The notes under the pieces were generated by a model. It had not been told where the DNA came from. It made no database searches and saw only the letters and a list, made by a program, of their open reading frames with translations. 64,000 nucleotides of DNA from Candidatus Magasanikiibacteriota bacterium. Its GTDB lineage: Bacteria; Patescibacteriota; Patescibacteriia; Magasanikbacterales; GWA2-37-8. Numbering within the stretch: position 1 is the first letter of the stretch; each line of letters begins with the position of its first letter. This document shows positions 3,023-58,649 of this stretch, piece by piece. Made by a program: the position numbers and the translations under genes. The stretch spans positions 28,648 to 92,647 of the forward strand of contig JAHFHX010000001.1 of NCBI GenBank assembly GCA_023246655.1, written 5' to 3'.

Positions 3023-4279
3023 ATGGAATCTACCAATGCTTTTACAAATGCTTTGGCACAACTCACCAAAGCCGCCGCGGTTATTAAACTAGAGCCGGCT
3101 ATGTATCAACGTTTGGCGTTGCCGCAGCGTTTTTTGGCAGTAGCAATTCCCGTCACCATGGATGATGGTTCCGTACGAGTATTCCACGGTTTTCGCAGCC
3201 AGTACAATAATGCGCGCGGGCCGTTTAAAGGCGGCATTCGTTTTCATCCGGCTGTTTCCGAAGATGAAGTGAAAGCACTCTCCCTGTGGATGACTATGAA
3301 ATGCGCCGTTGTGGGGTTGCCGCTGGGCGGTGGTAAGGGGGGTATTATTGTTAATCCAAAAGAACTATCAACGGGGGAATTGGAACGATTGTCGCGTGGC
3401 TATATCCGGGCGTTGTATAGATACTTAGGTCCAGACCAAGATGTGCCGGCGCCCGATGTGTATACCACCCCGCAAATTATGGCCTGGATATTGGATGAGT
3501 ACGAACATTTGGTTGGCCACCATGCACCGGGGCTTATTACCGGTAAGCCTTTGGCCATTGGTGGGTCGGCCGGGCGCGGAACGGCCACGGCGCAGGGTGG
3601 ATTCTTTGTGCTTGATGAAGCAATGAAAAAAATGGGAAAAAAAGTAGCCGGTACCACCGTTGCGGTGCAAGGATTTGGGAATGCCGGAAGCAATATGGTT
3701 GATCTGTTGGCTGCTCACGGGTATAAAGTTGTTGCCATTAGTGATTCACGGGGCGGCGTGTATCATGAGGCAGGAATTGATTCTAAACAATTACAGGAAT
3801 TAAAAAATAATGGGATGTCTCTTGAGTCGTATTGTTCTGGTAAGGCTGGCGCCTGCCGAGCTATTACTAATCAAGAATTATTGGAACTGCCTGTTGATGT
3901 ATTGGTTCCGGCCGCGCTGGAAAACCAAATTACAGCCGAGAATGCCCCGCGTATTAAAGCTTCCCTGGTGCTGGAACTTGCCAATGGCCCTACAACACCA
4001 GAAGCAGACGAAATATTATTTACGAATGGAACGAAAGTTGTGCCCGATATTTTAGCTAATGCCGGTGGCGTTACCGTATCTTATTTCGAACAAGTTCAGA
4101 ATGCAGCCAATTATTATTGGCCGGAGGCAGAGGTGATGAGTAAACTTAAAGCCATTATGGTTGAATCGTGTTCAGCGGTGTGGAAAGTACAGGAAGAACA
4201 CAACATAACCCTGCGAACCGCGGCGCACGTGGTGGCACTTCGTCGCGTCACCGAAGCGATGGCGGTGCGCGGGATTTAA
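3023..4279 (+). CDS. gdhA: Glu/Leu/Phe/Val dehydrogenase family, probable glutamate dehydrogenase
   Basis: GPFKGGIRFHP and LGGGKGGIIVNP signature motifs, plus a C-terminal NAD(P) domain GFGNAGS. Confidence 0.88.
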   Translation: MESTNAFTNALAQLTKAAAVIKLEPAMYQRLALPQRFLAVAIPVTMDDGSVRVFHGFRSQYNNARGPFKGGIRFHPAVSEDEVKALSLWMTMKCAVVGLPLGGGKGGIIVNPKELSTGELERLSRGYIRALYRYLGPDQDVPAPDVYTTPQIMAWILDEYEHLVGHHAPGLITGKPLAIGGSAGRGTATAQGGFFVLDEAMKKMGKKVAGTTVAVQGFGNAGSNMVDLLAAHGYKVVAISDSRGGVYHEAGIDSKQLQELKNNGMSLESYCSGKAGACRAITNQELLELPVDVLVPAALENQITAENAPRIKASLVLELANGPTTPEADEILFTNGTKVVPDILANAGGVTVSYFEQVQNAANYYWPEAEVMSKLKAIMVESCSAVWKVQEEHNITLRTAAHVVALRRVTEAMAVRGI

Positions 4280-4286
4280 AAAAGTT

Positions 4287-4970
4287 ATGAACGTTAGTAA
4301 ATTTAATTCGTCAACTCAGTTCATAGCCGCGACTGAGGCAGTTATTGTTGCACTCTGTAATGCCACTACCGGAGTGAAACACATTGCCTTAAGCGGCGGC
4401 AAAACTCCGCGGCCAATTTACGAAGCCTTGGCGACAAATGCGGCTATACATTTTGACGATATTGAGTGGTACTTGGTTGATGAACGTTATGTTCCACTGG
4501 ATCACCCGGACTCAAATTATAAAATGATTGTGGAAGCATTTAGCGCGGCCCAGCCAACATTTTCCGAGCATTTTCATTATTTTGATACCAGTTTGCCGCT
4601 TAAGGAATCTGCTCACCGTTACGAAACTGAGCTTAAAAATATTCCGGGGTTACAGTTTGATCTTTGTGTTCTTGGCATCGGTAGCGACGGCCACACCGCT
4701 TCACTTTTTCCGGGGAGCTCCGCACTTTATGAACGCGAACGCCTGGTCGTACCTGCCATTAACGAATTTGTTCCACACCCCCCGGTGCATGAGAGACTAA
4801 CGCTTACGTGGCCAATGATTTTAAAAAGTAAGGAAGTGCTTTTGTTAGCTTCAGGACAGGAAAAACAGGCGATAATTGCGGAATTGCAATTTTCTCACAA
4901 ACAATTTACAGAATTGCCAGCAAAAAAATTGTTGGAGCACCACAATTTTAAAATTTATTTTTTTTCATAA
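4287..4970 (+). CDS. pgl: 6-phosphogluconolactonase (glucosamine-6-P isomerase/6PGL family)
   Basis: LSGGKTPRPIYEAL and GIGSDGHTASLFPG motifs. Its position inside the zwf/gnd cluster favours 6PGL. Confidence 0.8.
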   Translation: MNVSKFNSSTQFIAATEAVIVALCNATTGVKHIALSGGKTPRPIYEALATNAAIHFDDIEWYLVDERYVPLDHPDSNYKMIVEAFSAAQPTFSEHFHYFDTSLPLKESAHRYETELKNIPGLQFDLCVLGIGSDGHTASLFPGSSALYERERLVVPAINEFVPHPPVHERLTLTWPMILKSKEVLLLASGQEKQAIIAELQFSHKQFTELPAKKLLEHHNFKIYFFS

Positions 4971-5133
4971 CAATACTATTGTCGGAAGGCAATTTTTTTA
5001 GTAGTATAAATGTCGTGAGGAAAGGCGGAGAGGAGATAGGCTGCGTGGGCAACATGCAAAACCTATCTTCCTCTCCCAACCTCACATTGCAAGATACTCG
5101 GTAGAAGCCCGAGTTTTTTGTTTGCTCGGTTTT

Positions 5134-6393
5134 CTAATCCGTGAACACCACGCCCATGTTGAGGGCATCCTTGGCGCCGTGCACGAGTCTTCCGCGGCAG
5201 GCTGTCACCACCGCCTCGGCCGGGGAACGCTCGATGAAGTACACCACGAGGCGCGTGAAGCGCTCGTCCGTCGTGAGCTCCCCGTTCGCGTTGTAGTGCC
5301 GGAATTCCCGCTGGCGCCCCTTGAGCTCCCGCTGGAGGATGTAACGCCCACTGGAGCGCTGCGCTGCGTGGAGCGTGTCCTCAAACCTCGAATCATCCGA
5401 GAAGGCCACCCCCTTCGTCCCCGCCGAGATGGTCTCCTTGAGTACGTAGCGCTCCGTCAGGTTCGGGAGGGCGCCGTGCCGGGTCACGAGGTGGGTTTCC
5501 GGGAGATGCTGCCGGATCGTCTGGAGGGACTGCCCGCTCATCTGGGAACGGAGAATCGCTTCGATGTCGGCGTCATTCCCCGGGTTGCTGAGGATGGCGA
5601 GCAGGTTTTTCGAGCCCATGAAGGGCTTCGGCGGCATGAGGAACTTGATCTCGCCCTTCCGGTAGAGGTCGGCGAGGGCGTCGGTGAGGCGCGGGTTCTC
5701 GGTCATCACGGGGAAGTTCACGAGGGTACGCGTCGTCTCGCGCTCGCCGCGGATGATGAGATTCTGTCCGTCGACCGCCGTCTCGATCTCGTCGGCGACG
5801 ATGAGCTCGACCCCAGCGCTTCGGAGCGCCTGCCGGAGGATGTGAAACTCCGGGAGGTAGAAGCGCTCGCGGTGGCCGTAGAGGAAGACGAGCTGATCGA
5901 GGCCGCGCTTTTTGATCGCCGTCCCGAGACTCGTCCTGATCCCCGGGAGCGTGCTCGCGCCCGGGTTCACGGCCTCACGGATGGCGGCAAAGAGGGTCGC
6001 GTAGCCCATGGCCCGCCGGTTCATCGCGTCGATCTCGGCGATCCACAGGTGTCCCGCGGCGTCTTCCACGAAGTCAACCTTCACGATGAGCGGCGTCGTC
6101 GAGGGCTTCAGGAGCTGGAGCTCCCGGTGCGGCCGCGGCACCTCCATCGCGACAGCGTTCTTCAGGAGATCCCAGGTCTTGCCCGGGGCCAGCTCCCGCT
6201 GGTGGGCGATGGTCGCGATCCGCCCGAGGCCAGCGAGGCTCTCGGTGATCGCGGGGCCCAGGTGCTCGAGCTCCGTCCTCGCGCTCATGGGGAGCGGGAA
6301 GACATCCGGGGTGAGCAGGAAACCGTGCGTTTCCCGCCGTCCGCCGTCCCAGATACCCGATTCAATGACGATCTGTTCAATGAGCCTGTACAT
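5134..6393 (-). CDS. GC-rich (approx 62-65% GC) hypothetical enzyme, possibly ATP-grasp / glutathionylspermidine-synthase-like amidoligase; likely horizontally acquired
   Basis: 419-aa ORF with protein-like composition. The opposite-strand ORF 5122..6531 is an R/E/L-rich shadow. AAGGA sits ~6 nt before the ATG at 6393. The segment SKNLLAILSNPGN resembles the SNKxxLxxLW segment of GspS-like ATP-grasp proteins, but family assignment is tentative. A terminator hairpin follows at 5100-5130. Composition differs strongly from the AT-rich flanks. Confidence 0.55.
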   Translation of the reverse strand: MYRLIEQIVIESGIWDGGRRETHGFLLTPDVFPLPMSARTELEHLGPAITESLAGLGRIATIAHQRELAPGKTWDLLKNAVAMEVPRPHRELQLLKPSTTPLIVKVDFVEDAAGHLWIAEIDAMNRRAMGYATLFAAIREAVNPGASTLPGIRTSLGTAIKKRGLDQLVFLYGHRERFYLPEFHILRQALRSAGVELIVADEIETAVDGQNLIIRGERETTRTLVNFPVMTENPRLTDALADLYRKGEIKFLMPPKPFMGSKNLLAILSNPGNDADIEAILRSQMSGQSLQTIRQHLPETHLVTRHGALPNLTERYVLKETISAGTKGVAFSDDSRFEDTLHAAQRSSGRYILQRELKGRQREFRHYNANGELTTDERFTRLVVYFIERSPAEAVVTACRGRLVHGAKDALNMGVVFTD

Positions 6394-7053
6394 GGTTGTG
6401 TCCTTGCAGTGAGTTGTGGAAACGATTGTCGCTCGTTTCCTTGTTCGTCAGGTTTATACCCTGAAAGGTGTTCTCGTCACATTTCAAAGTACAAAAAACC
6501 CTGCGGTGGGCGCAGGGTAGAGTACAAATAAAGTGTACGCTAATAGTACCCGGCGCCAGTGGTGAGCCAGTTCCAGGCAAAATAATAAGTTGTGGGCAGT
6601 TGTGAGAACATACGTTATATAATAATACTGAGGATTGCAGATAGGTATTCTATGATAAATGTTGGTTGTTCATGAGGGCATTGCGGTTTTGTTATAAAAA
6701 ATAAACCGCCCGATGACTCGGGCGGTTGGTTTAGTAATTTTGTTATCAATTACAAAATTCACCACTCGAGCAAAGAGGGCAGGTGGTACGACCAAAACAG
6801 TGTAATAGAGTGGTGAGAAAATTTCATACAGTTTAAGAATAGTAGTATCGTAATGTTATTTATTTTTTCAGTCAAGCTAGAGTTGTTGATAACTTTATTT
6901 TAAGTATCAATAATGCCGTGGCGTTGAGAACCAATATTTTTTTGTGCCACCTGCTGCCAGTTGTTGGATATTTTATTTTTCCTTCGCAACATCACCAATA
7001 ATCTTGGCGATGTAGTAGAAGGGGAGAGGCGAAATTTTTTCACCTCTCCGCGG

Positions 7054-7127
7054 GGCCCCAGGGCGGATTTGAACCGCCGACTCGCAGATTTTCAGTCCGC
7101 TGCTCTGCCAGGCTGAGCTACCGGGGC
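7054..7127 (-). tRNA. tRNA-Phe (anticodon GAA)
   Basis: The reverse complement folds as a cloverleaf: acceptor GCCCCGG/CTGGGGC, D-arm GCTC-AGCCTGGCA-GAGC, anticodon stem GCGGA/TCTGC with loop CTGAAAA (anticodon GAA), T-arm GGCGG-TTCAAAT-CCGCC. CCA is not encoded. A hairpin at 7021-7050 follows the 3' end. Confidence 0.9.
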
Positions 7128-7187
7128 GGGAGACTTGGGGAGTCAGGGCCGCACGCGTTGCACGCGCGGCGCTGACATCCCGGGGGG

Positions 7188-7337
7188 TCACCGATCGGCG
7201 GCAGGAGGGGGCGCGACCGGACTCTTGCGCCGCCGCGGGGGCGGCAGTTCGAAGGGGTCCACGTGGAATTGTGGATCCTTCTTGATAGGGGGGTTCCCAG
7301 CGGGGGGCTGGGACGGGGGTGCCGGGGTGCGTTCCAT
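7188..7337 (-). CDS. small proline-rich ORF (49 aa) in GC-rich patch
   Basis: ATG 7337..7335 is preceded by AAGGAGA at a 7-nt spacing. Encodes MERTPAPPSQPPAGNPPIKKDPQFHVDPFELPPPRRRKSPVAPPPAADR. The listed 91/100-aa ORFs in other frames lack ribosome-binding sites. Speculative. Confidence 0.3.
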   Translation of the reverse strand: MERTPAPPSQPPAGNPPIKKDPQFHVDPFELPPPRRRKSPVAPPPAADR

Positions 7338-7914
7338 GCGCGTTTCTCCTTACCCCCTTGTAAGCGGGGGTTTGCCAAAGAGTCTCTCAGCACGAGAGGC
7401 GATTGACGCTAGTGCATCGCACGCTATCTCTTGCTGATTATTCTATTTGTCAAAATGAGTAATACGATATCCCGAGTGAGTCGGGATTGTTAACGTCGGC
7501 ATCGAGCTTCGTCCGCCTTTGGCGCACTCGCTCTCCGCTCGTCGTTAACAAAAAAACCGCCCGAAGCTCGGGCGGTTTGGAAATTTGTGTTATTTAGCAA
7601 CCACAAGTTCCACCGCCTGAGCCAGGGGAGGTAAAGTAGAAAAAGAAAACTTGATTTAAGCGGTTGGAATTCATAATATTTAAATGGTAGCACAGGTTGT
7701 TTCGGTAGTCAAATGGAACCTTGTGGATAAATAAAAATTGCGTTATACTGTAGGGTATGGAACTGGTACTAAGTTATTGTAATAAAGCCTCGTAGAGAGT
7801 GGTTTTCTTGCACCCAAACCCCGCTGTGGCGGGTCGTAATGGGCGCCGCGAAAATCACTCTCTATTTCGGCCCAAATTAGATAAAAATTAATGATAATTT
7901 AATACCTACCTTAT

Positions 7915-9075
7915 ATGCAATTTTCTTCCTCAATACCTATTGAACCCTCCGCCACCCTTACCATCAATAGTAAGGCTTTGGAAAAAAAAGCTCGGGGGGA
8001 GCGGGTGTACAACCTTAGTGCAGGCGAACCGATGTTAGCACCACACCCAGCAATTGTAGAGGGGGCACTTCAAGCGATGCACGCTGGCAAAACCTTATAC
8101 CCGCCGGTCGCTGGCATACCAGAACTGCGCCAGGCTGCTGCCCAATGGATGCGCACAACGTATGGTACTTGGTTTGAACAAAAAAATACTTTGGTAACGT
8201 GCGGTGGTAAATTTGGTATTTTTGCTTTATTAGAGGCGTATCTACAACCAGGCGATGAGACGTTGATCATTGCGCCGTATTGGGTTTCGTATCCACAACT
8301 TGTCAAATTATTTGGTGGCGTGCCACGAATTATCCAAACCGAAGAAAAGAGTGGTTGGAAAATTTCCATGAGCGAACTTAAAAAGATTGAGACTAAGATT
8401 AAGATTTTGATATTGAATAACGCCGCCAACCCAACTGGTGCTGTGTACACTCGTGAAGAATTAAAGAATATTCTTGGCTGGGCGAAAGAAAAAAATATTA
8501 TCGTCATCTCTGATGAAGTGTATAGCGGCCTGGTGTATGATGGAGCGGAATATGTTTCCTGTGGCTCGTTCCCGGAGCACCAAGACCACGTTATTGTTAT
8601 CCAAAGTTGTTCCAAACATTTTGCCATGACTGGTTGGCGCGTTGGATTTGTATTCGCTCCTGAGGAAGTTATAAAAGTCCTTACCATGCTCCAGAGCCAG
8701 AGCACCACGGGTACGTCATCCATTAGTCAATGGGCAGCATTGGCGGCTTTGGAGCATGCTACGGAGATTATTCCAACTGTTCGCCAAGCTATGGAGCAGA
8801 GGCGTGATATTTTTATTAAGACATTCGCGCAATTATTTGGCATTACTCTATCTGTTCCAGCCTCCGCATTATATATTTTTATTGCTATGCGTCATTTGCA
8901 GTTAACTCATTCCGACTCAGTGCAATTTTGTAGGGAATTGATTGAAAAAGCCAACATTGCCCTGGTACCGGGTGCCGCGTTTGGAGCCGAAGGGTATGTG
9001 CGAGCGTCATTTGGGGCAGATGCGAACGAGCTTTGCGAATCACTGCAGGCCGTGGCAGTTTATTTACAGAAATAA
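7915..9075 (+). CDS. pyridoxal-phosphate-dependent aminotransferase, class I/II (aspartate aminotransferase-like)
   Basis: NAANPTGAVYTREEL and the PLP-lysine region SCSKHFAMTGWRVGF, ~386 aa. Confidence 0.85.
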   Translation: MQFSSSIPIEPSATLTINSKALEKKARGERVYNLSAGEPMLAPHPAIVEGALQAMHAGKTLYPPVAGIPELRQAAAQWMRTTYGTWFEQKNTLVTCGGKFGIFALLEAYLQPGDETLIIAPYWVSYPQLVKLFGGVPRIIQTEEKSGWKISMSELKKIETKIKILILNNAANPTGAVYTREELKNILGWAKEKNIIVISDEVYSGLVYDGAEYVSCGSFPEHQDHVIVIQSCSKHFAMTGWRVGFVFAPEEVIKVLTMLQSQSTTGTSSISQWAALAALEHATEIIPTVRQAMEQRRDIFIKTFAQLFGITLSVPASALYIFIAMRHLQLTHSDSVQFCRELIEKANIALVPGAAFGAEGYVRASFGADANELCESLQAVAVYLQK

Positions 9076-9214
9076 ATTTGAGGAAAAAAATATCCCGACT
9101 CAGTCGGGATATTTTTTGTTCCTTTATTGGCAGAAGGATACCAACAAAGGAACGGACGGAACGACGGACTCCGCGCCGAGTTGCGCGGTGTCTGCCGTTC
9201 CGTAGGTGGCGGGG

Positions 9215-9556
9215 CTATGCCCGCAAGCGGTTGCGGCGGCGATACTCCTGCGTGCGCCGCCGAGAATCAATTCGCGCCCAAAGCGACCGGATGGCTTCGA
9301 GCTCCTGCTCTTCGCGCCTGGCGCGCTCAATGCCCTTCCAAATCCTCTCGCGGCGACCGTTGTCGCTCGTCCGCCGGAGCAGGTCGACGAGGTGCATCCG
9401 TCGGCGGTGCACCGCGACGGAGCCGTTGTGCAGGAGATGCTCAATCTCCTGGCGATGTCCAAGACGCAGCGCCGCATGGAGCGGTCTGTGCCCGGGATAG
9501 AGCAACTGGGCGCTACGTATTAGCCGCCCGTAGCGTACGTCATCAAGGACAGGCAT
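9215..9556 (-). CDS. GC-rich small protein (113 aa) with a single ankyrin-like repeat and Arg-rich tail
   Basis: The ATG at 9556 is preceded by AAGGAGAAGG at a 7-nt spacing. The segment YPGHRPLHAALRLGHRQEIEHLLHNGSV fits the ankyrin consensus G-TPLH-AA--GH---V--LL--GA. It lies in a GC-rich patch at 9120-9560. The opposite-strand Arg-rich ORFs are shadows. Confidence 0.4.
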   Translation of the reverse strand: MPVLDDVRYGRLIRSAQLLYPGHRPLHAALRLGHRQEIEHLLHNGSVAVHRRRMHLVDLLRRTSDNGRRERIWKGIERARREEQELEAIRSLWARIDSRRRTQEYRRRNRLRA

Positions 9557-13742: not shown

Positions 13743-13836
13743 AAAAACATCCCGACTTAGTCGGGATGTTTTTAATTTTTTTCTCCTCGACTCTCCAGAA
13801 TCGTCCATTGCACAACTCTGGAGATTGGTCGAGGAG
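13743..13836. repeat. direct repeat copy A (terminator hairpin plus 55-bp hairpin unit)
   Basis: AAAAACATCCCGACTTAGTCGGGATGTTTTT followed by TTCTCCTCGACTCTCCAGAATCGTCCATTGCACAACTCTGGAGATTGGTCGAGGA. The 55-bp part is identical to the copy at 14672-14726. Confidence 0.85.
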
Positions 13837-13865: not shown

Positions 13866-14147
13866 TCAGAGGATGATGATGTAGAAGGTTGTGGTGCGGG
13901 GCGGCACATCGCAGTCCCTTGCGTCCGCTGCTGTGCGGGACAAGAGCAGGACGACATTTGCTAGTTCCGTCAGCGCCCAGCTTGCGGGGGAGAACACCGT
14001 GTCGCGGCATCCTCCATCATTTTCCCGCCAGCCAATGCCGGGGCCATCTGTGTTTGAGCCACTGTATTCCACTTTGCCGATGACCCTGCGGCCATCGGCG
14101 TGAATTTCGATGATCATGCAGCCGGGCAGAACCTTGCCGAGTTCCAT
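13866..14147 (-). CDS. GC-rich hypothetical small protein (93 aa)
   Basis: The ATG at 14147 is preceded by AAAGGAG at a 9-nt spacing. It lies in a GC-rich patch between the two direct repeats. The C-terminal extent is uncertain because the ORF runs toward the repeat. Confidence 0.4.
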   Translation of the reverse strand: MELGKVLPGCMIIEIHADGRRVIGKVEYSGSNTDGPGIGWRENDGGCRDTVFSPASWALTELANVVLLLSRTAADARDCDVPPRTTTFYIIIL

Positions 14148-14640: not shown

Positions 14641-14726
14641 AAAAACATCCCCATTGAATCGGGATGTTTTTTTCTCCTCGACTCTCCAGAATCGTCCATT
14701 GCACAACTCTGGAGATTGGTCGAGGA
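14641..14726. repeat. direct repeat copy B
   Basis: AAAAACATCCCCATTGAATCGGGATGTTTTTTT plus the same 55-bp unit as copy A. Confidence 0.85.
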
Positions 14727-14764: not shown

Positions 14765-15073
14765 CTAAAAAAACTCAGCCGCCTCGAGCCCGAAAATGGC
14801 ATCCACGAGCCAGGCCCAGCCGGTGGGTTCGGGCGGGAGCCAAACAGCCATCATCCGCCCTGTGCGGCTTAGCCGGAATTCCGTCCCGGCGGTGCCTCCC
14901 TGATAGACCTCGATGAGCGCCGCCTGCATCAGCTTGTAGCTGACTTTAGCGGCGCGCCGTTTACCCACGGCTTGCGTCGTGCGGCGGATGAACTCCGCCG
15001 TGTCGAGGCTGTCGTCGGGTGGGATAGTGAGCAGATCCCGCAGGATCGCTCGGTGCGGTTTTCTCAGTTTCAT
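14765..15073 (-). CDS. GC-rich hypothetical small protein (102 aa), weak resemblance to RelE/ParE-type toxins
   Basis: The ATG at 15073 is preceded by GGAGG at a 7-nt spacing. The C-terminal segment EFRLSRTGRMMAVWLPPEPTGWAWLVDAI loosely resembles the RelE/ParE core YRLRVGDYRIIY...LVVL.IGHR. No adjacent antitoxin is evident, so this is a low-confidence call. Confidence 0.35.
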   Translation of the reverse strand: MKLRKPHRAILRDLLTIPPDDSLDTAEFIRRTTQAVGKRRAAKVSYKLMQAALIEVYQGGTAGTEFRLSRTGRMMAVWLPPEPTGWAWLVDAIFGLEAAEFF

Positions 15074-15451: not shown

Positions 15452-15563
15452 GTCATTGCGAGGAGTGAACTTCGCAGTGAACGACGAAGCAATCCCCCTT
15501 TTTGTGAGAAAGTTGGTGGCGCAATAAGGGGGATTGCCGCGTCGCTTCGCTCCTCGCAATGAC
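15452..15563. repeat. palindromic MITE/REP-like element, copy 1
   Basis: GTCATTGCGAGGAG...CGACGAAGCAATCCCCC / GGGGGATTGCCGCGTCG...CTCCTCGCAATGAC, a long imperfect hairpin between gatC and gatA. Copies occur at 59169-59283 (full) and 21746-21793 (partial). Confidence 0.85.
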
Positions 15564-21745: not shown

Positions 21746-21793
21746 GTCATTGCGAGGAAGACGATTCGCATCGGCTGACTTGGCAATCCCCCT
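21746..21793. repeat. partial (left-arm) copy of the GTCATTGCGAGGA palindromic element
   Basis: GTCATTGCGAGGAAGACGATTCGCATCG...GCAATCCCCC with no right arm. It sits between hrcA and grpE. Confidence 0.7.
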
Positions 21794-32586: not shown

Positions 32587-32613
32587 ATAATCAGTAGAAA
32601 AAAACATCCCGAC

Positions 32614-33024
32614 TTAGTCGGGATGTTTTTGATTATCTAAAATTTTATTCACCTCCGCATCCGCCTCTTTGTTCCCGGCACGCATGGTGTGGCGATACGT
32701 TACTTTTTTAAATTGCGTGGCAGTGTTGTAGACCTGCATAAATAATTTTTGGAGTGTTGGCTCTTTCACTTTGTACTCTCCTCGCATTTGTTTTACGATC
32801 AGTTCGCTATCGAGTACGCAGTGAACTTCGGTCGCACCAAGCTCTTTAGCTTTTTTGAGAGCAGAAATAAGGGCCGAGTACTCAGCAAAGTTATTAGTTT
32901 GGTGCCCCAAATATTCGCCATAGTGCGCCAGCACAACGCCCGCCTCATTTTTGATAACAATGCCAGCGGCAGCTGGCCCCGGGTTGCCACGCGCTCCGCC
33001 ATCGGTGTGGGTGATTAATTTCAT
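32614..33024 (-). CDS. rnhA: ribonuclease HI
   Basis: THTDGGARGNPGPAAAGIVIK and the catalytic E/D/D/H pattern (EYSALISAL, HCVLDSELIVKQ, GNKEADAEVNKIL), ~136 aa. Confidence 0.88.
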   Translation of the reverse strand: MKLITHTDGGARGNPGPAAAGIVIKNEAGVVLAHYGEYLGHQTNNFAEYSALISALKKAKELGATEVHCVLDSELIVKQMRGEYKVKEPTLQKLFMQVYNTATQFKKVTYRHTMRAGNKEADAEVNKILDNQKHPD

Positions 33025-58457: not shown

Positions 58458-58649
58458 TTCAATTTCTGGTATGTATTTCACAAAGCTTAAAAATATTTTG
58501 CAGAAAAATAAACTATTTTTTATTTTGGTGATCGCTAAGCATTTTAGATAATAAACGTTTTTAAAATAACTTATCCACAATCCCGACTCAGTCGGGATTT
58601 TTTGTTGTACATTAGCCAAAATTACGTAGATATTTTTTGGTGTAAAGTG

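Follow-up and report, generated by a model that had tools for sequence, protein, structure and literature searches.

Whether the GC-rich interval between pgl (PF01182) and a class I/II aminotransferase gene (PF00155) is a foreign insertion or part of the host's own regulatory apparatus is the question raised by this locus, which lies in a 64,000-nt stretch (the window) of contig JAHFHX010000001.1, from a Candidatus Magasanikiibacteriota bacterium. The interval holds a solitary 419-aa gene, a tRNA-Phe gene, a small proline-rich open reading frame (ORF) and two near-identical hairpins, and the initial annotation took these together as suggesting a laterally acquired island, perhaps old or decayed and possibly from a high-GC donor, with the tRNA gene as its integration site and the hairpins as its brackets. 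The present analysis points to a different answer, which we regard as likely: the interval is a minus-strand array of three leader-peptide attenuators for shortage of aromatic amino acids and also of histidine, and not an integrated island.

The components themselves had been described correctly. The minus-strand gene at 5134..6393 is GC-rich (65.7%, with a third-codon-position GC content, GC3, of 0.888), while the tRNA-Phe (7054..7127, minus strand), the GC-rich block next to it and the Pro-rich ORF preceded by a Shine-Dalgarno site were all found to within 2 nt of where they had been placed. The two hairpins are likewise present at 6703-6728 and 7553-7578 and have identical 10-nt arms (AACCGCCCGA/TCGGGCGGTT). 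Their role as the brackets of an island could not be upheld: both are the 3' ends of two paralogous elements of ~150 nt (nhmmer E-values of 1e-39 and 8e-27), where they form the terminators of attenuators that have promoters, leader ORFs and antiterminators of their own.

In the first of these elements, attenuator A, a consensus scan called a promoter at 7684..7712 (minus strand; TTGACT, a 17-nt spacer and TACCAT, with an upstream TG that makes an extended -10), of which the orthologue in L008, the closest relative found, is TGCTACAGT. It is followed by a nearly leaderless ORF (7594..7674, minus strand), with no Shine-Dalgarno sequence before its ATG, that specifies the peptide MNSNRLNQVFFFYFTSPGSGGGTCGC, including the run F-F-F-Y-F, and has the orthologues MQPNHSNQVFFYFTSPGSGGGDCGC in L008 and MQYKRLNSFFFYFTPSGSSGEVCSC in L009. 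The same scan called terminator A (7554..7578, minus strand), the second of the two hairpins, with an 11-bp stem followed by UUUUUUU. The 5' arm of this terminator (UUCCAAACCGCCCGAGC) can pair instead with GGCUCAGGCGGUGGAA inside the leader ORF, giving an antiterminator, and the 1:2 hairpin of the element is formed by UUCCAACCGCUU with AGGCGGUGGAA. The two conformations are near-isoenergetic, at -35.7 to -37.4 kcal/mol for the 1:2 hairpin plus terminator and -37.0 kcal/mol for the antiterminator. Segments 1 and 2 flank the aromatic codons, and segment 3 follows immediately on the stop codon of the leader, a geometry shared with the trp, phe and his attenuators. The whole element (7545-7696) is orthologous to 9787-9938 of L008 and 5386-5538 of L009, and across the four alignable copies 82.8% of the cells of the antiterminator are paired, against 30-48% for slid partners, with a covariation score that was reached by 9 of 500 shuffles. 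At gathering thresholds Rfam reported two tRNAs alone, and a permissive scan added only sub-threshold, terminator-driven matches, among them one to Phe_leader (RF01859) at 7548-7666 (minus strand) with 31.1 bits and an E-value of 0.008, against a gathering threshold of 55 bits. Judged by its sequence, element A is Phe-leader-like in its working, and it stands outside that curated enterobacterial family. A scan of the JGI metagenomes for A-type leaders by exact DNA pattern gave no match.

Attenuator B is built in the same way, with a promoter at 6847..6875 (minus strand; TTGACT, a 17-nt spacer and TACGAT), a leader ORF at 6759..6827 (minus strand) that specifies MKFSHHSITLFWSYHLPSLLEW with Phe, Trp, Tyr and His codons, and a terminator at 6704..6727 (minus strand), which is the first of the two hairpins. 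Its segments 1 and 2 pair as CUCACCACUC:GAGUGGUGA, and its antiterminator, which was read from the sequence, would join CUCGAGUGGU of the leader to ACCGCCCGAG, the 5' arm of the terminator. Attenuator C lies directly upstream of the 419-aa gene and consists of a leader ORF at 6540..6611 (minus strand, ATG at 6611), specifying MFSQLPTTYYFAWNWLTTGAGYY, in which 8 of 23 residues are aromatic, and a terminator at 6498..6518 (minus strand), formed by ACCCUGCG and CGCAGGGU and followed by UUUUUU. A 1:2 hairpin is present, and the antiterminator pairs GGCGCCGGGU with ACCCUGCGCC. No separate promoter for C was called in the consensus scan, so that C is probably fed by transcripts reading through B. 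All three attenuators thus have clustered aromatic codons (FFFYF in A, F-W-S-Y-H in B and YYFAWNW..YY in C), a Rho-independent terminator with a U-run after the leader, and a mutually exclusive antiterminator on the 5' arm of that terminator, the position of the ribosome being what would decide the fold. The consensus scan, which was independent, called the promoters and terminators of the array at the expected sites.

The mechanism proposed is of an already known kind. A shortage of charged tRNA-Phe, -Tyr, -Trp or -His would stall the ribosome at the aromatic codons; the leader would then pair, by its downstream half, with the 5' arm of the terminator to form the antiterminator, and RNA polymerase would read through. 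When charged tRNAs are plentiful the ribosome would reach the stop codon and cover the downstream half of the leader, and with this segment covered the GC-rich hairpin and its U-run would form and transcription would end. Attenuator A (...VFFFYF...), with its own promoter, would in this way lead into the Pro-rich ORF and the tRNA-Phe, and attenuator B (...LFWSYH...), also with its own promoter, would run into attenuator C (...YYFAWNW...) before the 419-aa gene.

Elements of this type are not confined to the window, and aromatic-run leader ORFs were found in 11 element copies from eight genomes, the related leaders being MKTIKTTYFFFSFTCSGGDKGTCSC in L006, MRQNYFNNYFFGFFTRPGLDG in L019, MKAVQKIFWHYYFFLAPRSAGRIF in L002, MISRVQTFFYFYFSRSAPVHVCIRLK in L040, MLRHLSQAFYFFFFFRPLAAEVVRVRI in L034 and MKHPNNSFTFSFFFTRLKAGAVGIA in L062. 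In the diverged copies (L009, L019, L040, L062a/b and L002) the sequence has changed and the 3' part of the leader is still complementary to its own terminator arm. The copy in L006/L053 stands directly upstream of genes for prephenate dehydratase and DAHP synthase, and a position before a Phe-biosynthesis gene is the classical one for a Phe attenuator, as in pheL (PMC3082878). These pheA/aroG genes of L006, with their Phe leader, lie just downstream of a homologue of the 419-aa gene, and in L003 a TrpR-like gene adjoins such a homologue. Downstream of the Phe leader of L019 (6579-9356, minus strand) there are a TrpR-like gene, a zinc-ribbon ORF, a 341-aa ORF and a 346-aa ORF, the last two appearing by eye to be tryptophan 2,3-dioxygenase-like and aldo-keto reductase-like, respectively; these genes have 56-64% GC in a contig of 49.5% GC.

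A second association is with the family of the 419-aa gene itself, which encodes a predicted ligase (see below). A gene for a HAD-like protein of ~145 aa lies beside the ligase gene, with a match in 74 loci and a position directly upstream in the 59 surveyed. Leaders were sought near this pair as ATG-initiated ORFs of 10-40 aa with at least five F/W/Y/H residues in eight and a terminator following, and an aromatic/His leader with terminator was found to adjoin the HAD-ligase pair in 33 of the 59 loci; the background of the scan was four predictions in 909 kb elsewhere, more than 100-fold rarer per kb. A common form next to the pair is M.N..ATF.YAYHWF..SEP, with the consensus ATF.YAYHWF, and we know of no earlier description of this F/Y/H/W combination. 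The leader stands between the HAD and ligase genes in L002, L076, L048, L103 and L112, and L002 and L076 also have one upstream. In L002 the operon reads leader, LysE, HAD, leader, ligase, and in the window it reads leader B, leader C, ligase, with no HAD-like partner within the 64 kb. The window copy looks like an operon of the L002 type after deletion of LysE and HAD, a loss that would have left the two leaders in tandem. Candidates of other kinds, each a leader peptide with a terminator, were also seen, namely Cys-rich ones ending CCGGNCNC upstream of the aminotransferase orthologue in L037 (8983-9086) and L041 (5333-5447), a Met-rich one (MMMAIMMMM) at 16716-16888 of L031 and a His-rich one (TTTHHHH) at 9633-9765 of L046.

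Among the products that the array would control is the 419-aa protein (5134..6393, minus strand), for which an AlphaFold2 model was obtained with a predicted local distance difference score (pLDDT) of 93.4 and a predicted template-modelling score (pTM) of 0.92. A Foldseek search of the PDB with this model gave a best E-value of 5.8e-17 (8fbz), with further matches to 7uk8, 7uk6, 2io8 and 3n6x (TM 0.57-0.69); the matches over the full length of the fold were to eukaryotic-type glutathione synthetase, E. coli YgiC/YjfC and GspS (E-values of 6e-17 to 1e-11, TM 0.6-0.69, with about 0.65 for the glutathione synthetases). The modelled fold is that of a glutathione-synthetase/GspS-like, circularly permuted ATP-grasp, and the protein is a predicted ATP-dependent carboxylate-amine ligase of the ATP-grasp superfamily. 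The suggestion that it belongs with the ATP-grasp families CP_ATPgrasp or GSP_synth therefore holds for the fold (pLDDT 93, Foldseek E-value 6e-17) but not for membership of a Pfam family, as no Pfam match at an E-value of 0.01 or lower was found, and none in NCBIfam, PADLOC or PHROG, nor any significant sequence match in the PDB. An alignment of the family has 29 invariant columns, including E120, K256, K262, K319 and R381, while D122 and N125 are nearly invariant, and the invariant acidic and basic residues would be compatible with ATP/Mg binding.

A word-indexed search returned 32 homologues, the best with 49% identity, and a profile search returned 394 cluster representatives among 1.84 billion proteins. 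The named members are Patescibacteria (Doudnabacteria, Shapirobacteria and an unclassified "Patescibacteria group"), with one exception labelled Azotimanducaceae, so that the family appears small and largely confined to Patescibacteria. The nearest named homologue (49% identity) is in the Magasanikbacteria genome L002, is GC-rich too and also has aromatic leaders ahead of it. The presence of the same GC-rich gene in relatives of the lineage had been named in advance as an argument against the island, and L002 largely supplies it, although the neighbouring genes differ there. An antisense ORF of 469 aa (5122..6531, plus strand) spans the whole gene and was rejected as a candidate: homologues of lower GC interrupt this frame with 3-13 stops, only the GC-richest copies leave it open, and it is a by-product of high GC3.

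The composition of the ligase gene was the chief reason for suspecting a foreign origin, and the anomaly is strong. Against a window GC content of 44.7% and host genes with GC 0.36-0.50, GC3 0.34-0.48 and four-fold-site GC 0.35-0.63, the gene has values of 0.657, 0.888 and 0.92, respectively, and its GC3 ranks first when compared with the 63 other ORFs of the window (z = 6.0). Codon choice is inverted, with TTC:TTT at 13:3 (host 23:140) and TAC:TAT at 9:0 (host 38:111). The excess over the host mean (~0.42) is 0.47, the extreme of the family range, but a range it is: the ligase gene has a higher GC3 than any of its neighbours in L002, L003, L047, L050 and the window (z 4.3-6.0), it lies above the mean of its neighbours in 80% of 35 metagenome loci, and in all 54 loci compared it exceeds the HAD gene next to it, by 0.17 on average and 0.455 at most (Wilcoxon p 1.6e-10). 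Relative to the rest of the contig, the mean GC of the HAD gene is 6% lower and that of the ligase gene 5.6% higher. For the closest homologues, the GC3 values of ligase and HAD are 0.79 and 0.52 for P0003 (L002), 0.71 and 0.42 for P0001 (L128), and 0.61 and 0.20 for P0002 (L129). Since the excess over the adjacent, co-oriented operon partner recurs in 54 of 54 loci, a high GC content is not diagnostic of recent transfer, and since dozens of precise replacements across AT-rich to GC-rich hosts would be hard to credit, we treat high GC3 as a trait of the whole ligase family and not as evidence of a distant donor.

The remainder of the interval is best understood by comparison with relatives. 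By its sequences the host is a Magasanikbacteria-like Patescibacterium, the aminotransferase having its best identity (72%) to the Candidatus Magasanikbacteria genome L008 and most of its other matches (50-62% identical) largely in Magasanikbacteria, Uhrbacteria and other Patescibacteria. Upstream in the window are genes for 6-phosphogluconate dehydrogenase (6PGD), glucose-6-phosphate dehydrogenase (G6PD) and glutamate dehydrogenase, and the order in L008 is 6PGD, G6PD, pgl, a gap of 1.1 kb and the aminotransferase. The 1.1-kb gap contains a different minus-strand Cys-rich ORFan and orthologues of the Pro-rich ORF and of attenuator A, and is without the 419-aa gene, the tRNA-Phe and the second copy of the hairpin. 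That the gene is missing from this site in L008 is a point in favour of the initial annotation. The layout of L009 is as in L008, with GC-rich ORFs that are different again, and together these layouts indicate a slot that is variable in content and bounded on both sides by conserved sequence. Its 3' boundary, common to L008 and L009, is a hairpin (GGAGAGGTG...CGCCTCTCC; 7021..7050, minus strand) followed by the conserved motif CCTTCTACTACATCGCCAAGATTATTGGTG (to ~6975). The minus-strand order in the window is thus promoter, leader and terminator A, an insert of 85 nt, the small ORF, tRNA-Phe, the hairpin, promoter, leader and terminator B, leader and terminator C, and the 419-aa gene, and at the convergent end of the array the consensus scan called the intrinsic terminator of pgl (5096..5114, plus strand). 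A chimeric assembly was considered and rejected: L001 is identical to 7299-9164 of the window (100%), and as the junctions of host and GC-rich sequence recur in the independent assemblies L001 and L052, a chimera is unlikely.

Within the slot, the GC-rich block (~7130-7440, GC 0.70) contains the 49-aa Pro-rich ORF (MERTPAPPSQPPAGNPPIKKDPQFHVDPFELPPP...; 7188..7337, minus strand, GC 0.71), which is 53% identical to the ORF in the same position behind the Phe attenuator of L008, and of which a weak DPF motif is also found in the first ORF after the Phe leaders of L040, L019 and L062. Its 5' leader (7338..7450, minus strand), including the Shine-Dalgarno sequence AAGGAGAA, is conserved in the alignment with L008. 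The same alignment shows a segment of ~85 nt (7455..7545, minus strand) that is missing from L008; it carries an inverted repeat, GTTAACG...CGTTAAC, a hairpin, ATCCCGA...TCGGGAT (7470-7488), and a candidate promoter (TTAACA-18-TATCGT; 7464-7493, minus strand) called by the consensus scan. The tRNA-Phe (GAA; 7054..7127, minus strand) comes next on this strand, after attenuator A and the small ORF, and no U-run terminator separates it from the latter. No tRNA-Phe was found at the corresponding place in L008, and none in the 43 related loci scanned. Read by eye, position 73 of the tRNA (7052-7127, minus strand), the discriminator, is C where A is usual, and it is followed by CCG, so that CCA is not encoded.

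That the interval came from a high-GC donor outside the lineage, entering at tRNA-Phe, with the hairpins as duplicates of an attachment site and an integrase since decayed, is in our estimate very unlikely. The GC3 of 0.89 in a host of ~0.42 with its inverted codon preferences, the lack of gene and tRNA at this site in L008 and the four other GC-rich ORFs nearby would all suit such an origin, but the hairpins are parts of attenuators with promoters and leader ORFs, and the 22-nt 3' end of the tRNA, when sought with up to three mismatches, matched only itself in the window, which speaks against integration there. An integrase, which the initial annotation had not seen either, was found neither in 5.1-7.7 kb nor in the annotated ORFs of the first 17 kb, and the search for phage and plasmid relatives gave no IMG/VR loci and no plasmid or phage tblastn match. 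Distant homologues were also considered as a source of a high-GC donor and rejected, the named ones among the 394 proteins of the profile search being Patescibacteria except for the one Azotimanducaceae; the leaders ahead of the gene are of the usual family type, and the GC3 excess is universal in the family. A narrower exchange, in which the attenuator operon is as described but the ligase coding sequence was recently replaced by, or acquired from, that of a GC-rich Patescibacterium and keeps the donor's composition, is also unlikely, though it would suit a copy with the highest GC3 measured in the family, with no known sequence more than 49% identical to it and with no HAD partner, a gene that almost all other copies have. 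In L008 and L009, different GC-rich ORFans do occupy the slot between the Phe attenuator and pgl/glutamate dehydrogenase, and Patescibacteria with a host GC3 of 0.61-0.67 do carry the family (L062, L066). Yet leaders B and C are AT-rich, host-like and of the family type, so the ORF alone would have been exchanged, the candidate phylum of the host also supplies the nearest named homologue, and the richer GC3 of the ligase over HAD in all 54 loci, in hosts of ~0.33 to ~0.55 GC, would need dozens of independent and equally precise replacements. Scarcely credible, finally, is the idea that each ~150-nt element is a small RNA acting in trans, with a terminator at its end and an aromatic ORF that is fortuitous. 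Promoters and terminators of their own, a length of ~130 nt, a CCUCCCC motif and the lack of a Shine-Dalgarno sequence before the ATG would fit small RNAs, but the reading frame and its aromatic run are kept in all copies despite nucleotide divergence, the run is always between segments 1 and 2 with the stop codon just before segment 3, and the elements are enriched more than 100-fold beside one particular operon and beside pheA/aroG.

We accordingly prefer an array of attenuators, and several observations weigh against it. Leader A has four Phe codons and one Tyr codon, just below the five-Phe criterion for pheL (PMC3082878). Attenuator A is directed away from the aminotransferase gene, and downstream of it the window has no gene recognisable as one of Phe biosynthesis. 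In the four alignable copies, the only ones available, the terminator/1:2 conformation is 74.8% paired and its covariation is not significant. The candidate promoter in the 85-nt insert lies between attenuator A and the small ORF and tRNA, so that the tRNA may not need read-through; control of tRNA-Phe by attenuator A is thus a possibility, and the promoter in the insert could equally drive the tRNA constitutively. The window copy of the ligase gene, which is solitary, exceeds in GC3 all others measured in the family, L008 is without the gene at this site, which makes a transfer event possible, and the three further GC-rich ORFs of the window (described below) have no attenuators. Transfer between Patescibacteria is indeed possible for the window copy, but composition alone no longer argues for it. 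Leader ORFs, terminators, alternative pairings, fold, neighbourhood and composition statistics are direct results of computation, and from them we infer the starvation response and the deletion history, all regulation being predicted.

GC-rich sequence is not unique to the interval, since three more GC-rich ORFs occur elsewhere in the window, all on the minus strand, specifying proteins of 113 aa (9215-9556), 93 aa (13866-14147) and 102 aa (14765-15073). They have a GC3 of 0.70-0.76 and a four-fold-site GC of 0.76-0.81, and each has a Shine-Dalgarno site of its own and follows closely on a host terminator in a gap between genes. PADLOC, PHROG, NCBIfam and Pfam gave no match to the five GC-rich ORFs of the window, the 102-aa protein (GC102) is an ORFan, with no match but itself in 5.8 billion clusters, and the small GC-rich ORFs of related loci have almost no similarity to each other. 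A 60-nt element is present in two 100% identical copies (13776-13835 and 14667-14726), each directly 3' of one of these small GC-rich ORFs and abutting a host terminator; it forms a bulged hairpin (CTCCTCGAC TCTCCAGA ... TCTGGAGA TTG GTCGAGGA) and, among the loci fetched, was seen only in this organism. These hairpins (13776, 14667) were considered as integron attC sites or IS200/IS605-type ends and rejected, as they have no GTTRRRY/RYYYAAC cores. A family of terminator hairpins, AAAAACATCCCGACTTAGTCGGGATGTTTTT, occurs at 9086-9120, 13743-13777, 14641-14675, 32600-32634 and 58574-58608 with 69-100% identity to the reference copy, and the hairpin ATCCCGA...TCGGGAT at 7470-7488 is related to it. 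Short intergenic repeats of the type GTCATTGCGAGG...CAATCCCC / GTCATCCTGAACGCAGTGAAGGATCTC were seen at 15452-15499 and 21746-21793 of the window and at 8100-8200 and 8896-8925 of L008.

Two other differences between the window and its relatives lie close to the interval. The glutamate dehydrogenase gene (3023-4279, plus strand) stands between G6PD and pgl and is missing from the otherwise syntenic L008, while in L009 it adjoins the attenuator slot. On the other side, L008 lacks ~150 nt (7760-7914) that separate the conserved promoter of the aminotransferase gene (TTGTGG...TATACT) from its start codon; they hold a long GC-rich hairpin (GAGAGTGGTTTTC...GAAAATCACTCTC) without a match in Rfam.

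Hardly any Patescibacteria (the candidate phyla radiation) are in culture; these cells have reduced genomes and a largely host-dependent life, and to our knowledge gene regulation in this group is essentially unknown. A search of the literature found no report of leader-peptide attenuation in Patescibacteria, of the F/Y/H/W leader type, of regulation of the HAD-ligase module or of a family-wide GC3 excess. The attenuators label an unannotated but conserved gene pair as "induced by aromatic amino-acid or histidine shortage", a label that can be read from the sequence and that turns an anonymous family into a testable hypothesis on how these cells cope with amino-acid limitation. It could be speculated further that Patescibacteria use leader-peptide attenuation with the HAD and ligase module at the core of a Phe/Tyr/Trp/His-starvation regulon, that a gene-specific force (biased conversion, or a selection that acts in starvation on the codons or the mRNA) keeps the ligase GC3-rich in hosts of ~33% to ~55% GC, and that tRNA-Phe is under a Phe-codon attenuator, by which its supply would be fed back on its own charging level; taken jointly, these three linked readings are tentative and we hold them rather doubtful. 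For genome scans there is a lesson of caution, in that a GC3 of 0.89 in a genome of 44% GC resembles horizontal transfer and is here the extreme of a family-wide bias, and near-identical "terminator repeats" around a tRNA can be paralogous regulatory elements and not attachment sites.

Among known systems, tRNA-targeted genomic islands share with this interval an atypical composition beside a tRNA gene and presence/absence differences between relatives, but here no integrase was found, the tRNA end is unrepeated and the flanking repeats are regulatory terminators. The ligase differs from glutathione synthetase, GspS, YgiC and YjfC in a sequence identity of 11-15% and in the pairing of its family with a HAD-like protein. 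The pheL-pheA and pheM-pheST attenuators of Gammaproteobacteria (RF01859; PMC3082878) resemble the present elements in having a short ORF with a run of Phe codons. The likeness extends to the 1:2 pause hairpin, the 2:3 antiterminator and the 3:4 Rho-independent terminator and, for the L006 copy, to a position before prephenate dehydratase. Unlike them, the elements described here are nearly leaderless, occur in Patescibacteria and fall below the Rfam threshold, codons for Phe, Tyr, Trp and His occur together in leaders B and C, and two attenuators stand in tandem; the genes downstream in the window are the small Pro-rich ORF, tRNA-Phe and the ATP-grasp ligase, in place of pheA or pheST. The sequence FFFYF-T-S of leader A also resembles ...FRFFFYFST of the E. 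coli pheM peptide. In the thr (Thr/Ile) and ilvGMEDA (Ile/Val/Leu) operons a single leader combines codons for more than one amino acid, an arrangement in which a shortage of any one of them gives read-through. The genes under the F/Y/H/W leaders, unlike those of thr and ilvGMEDA, are not recognisably biosynthetic. In L062, an Ile/Val/Leu-rich leader candidate (NIIIVNLVIL) with a terminator was seen at 4329-4460, ahead of the HAD-ligase pair, and this leader (MNNPYHNIIIVNLVILRGGG) is of the same type as that of ilvGMEDA.

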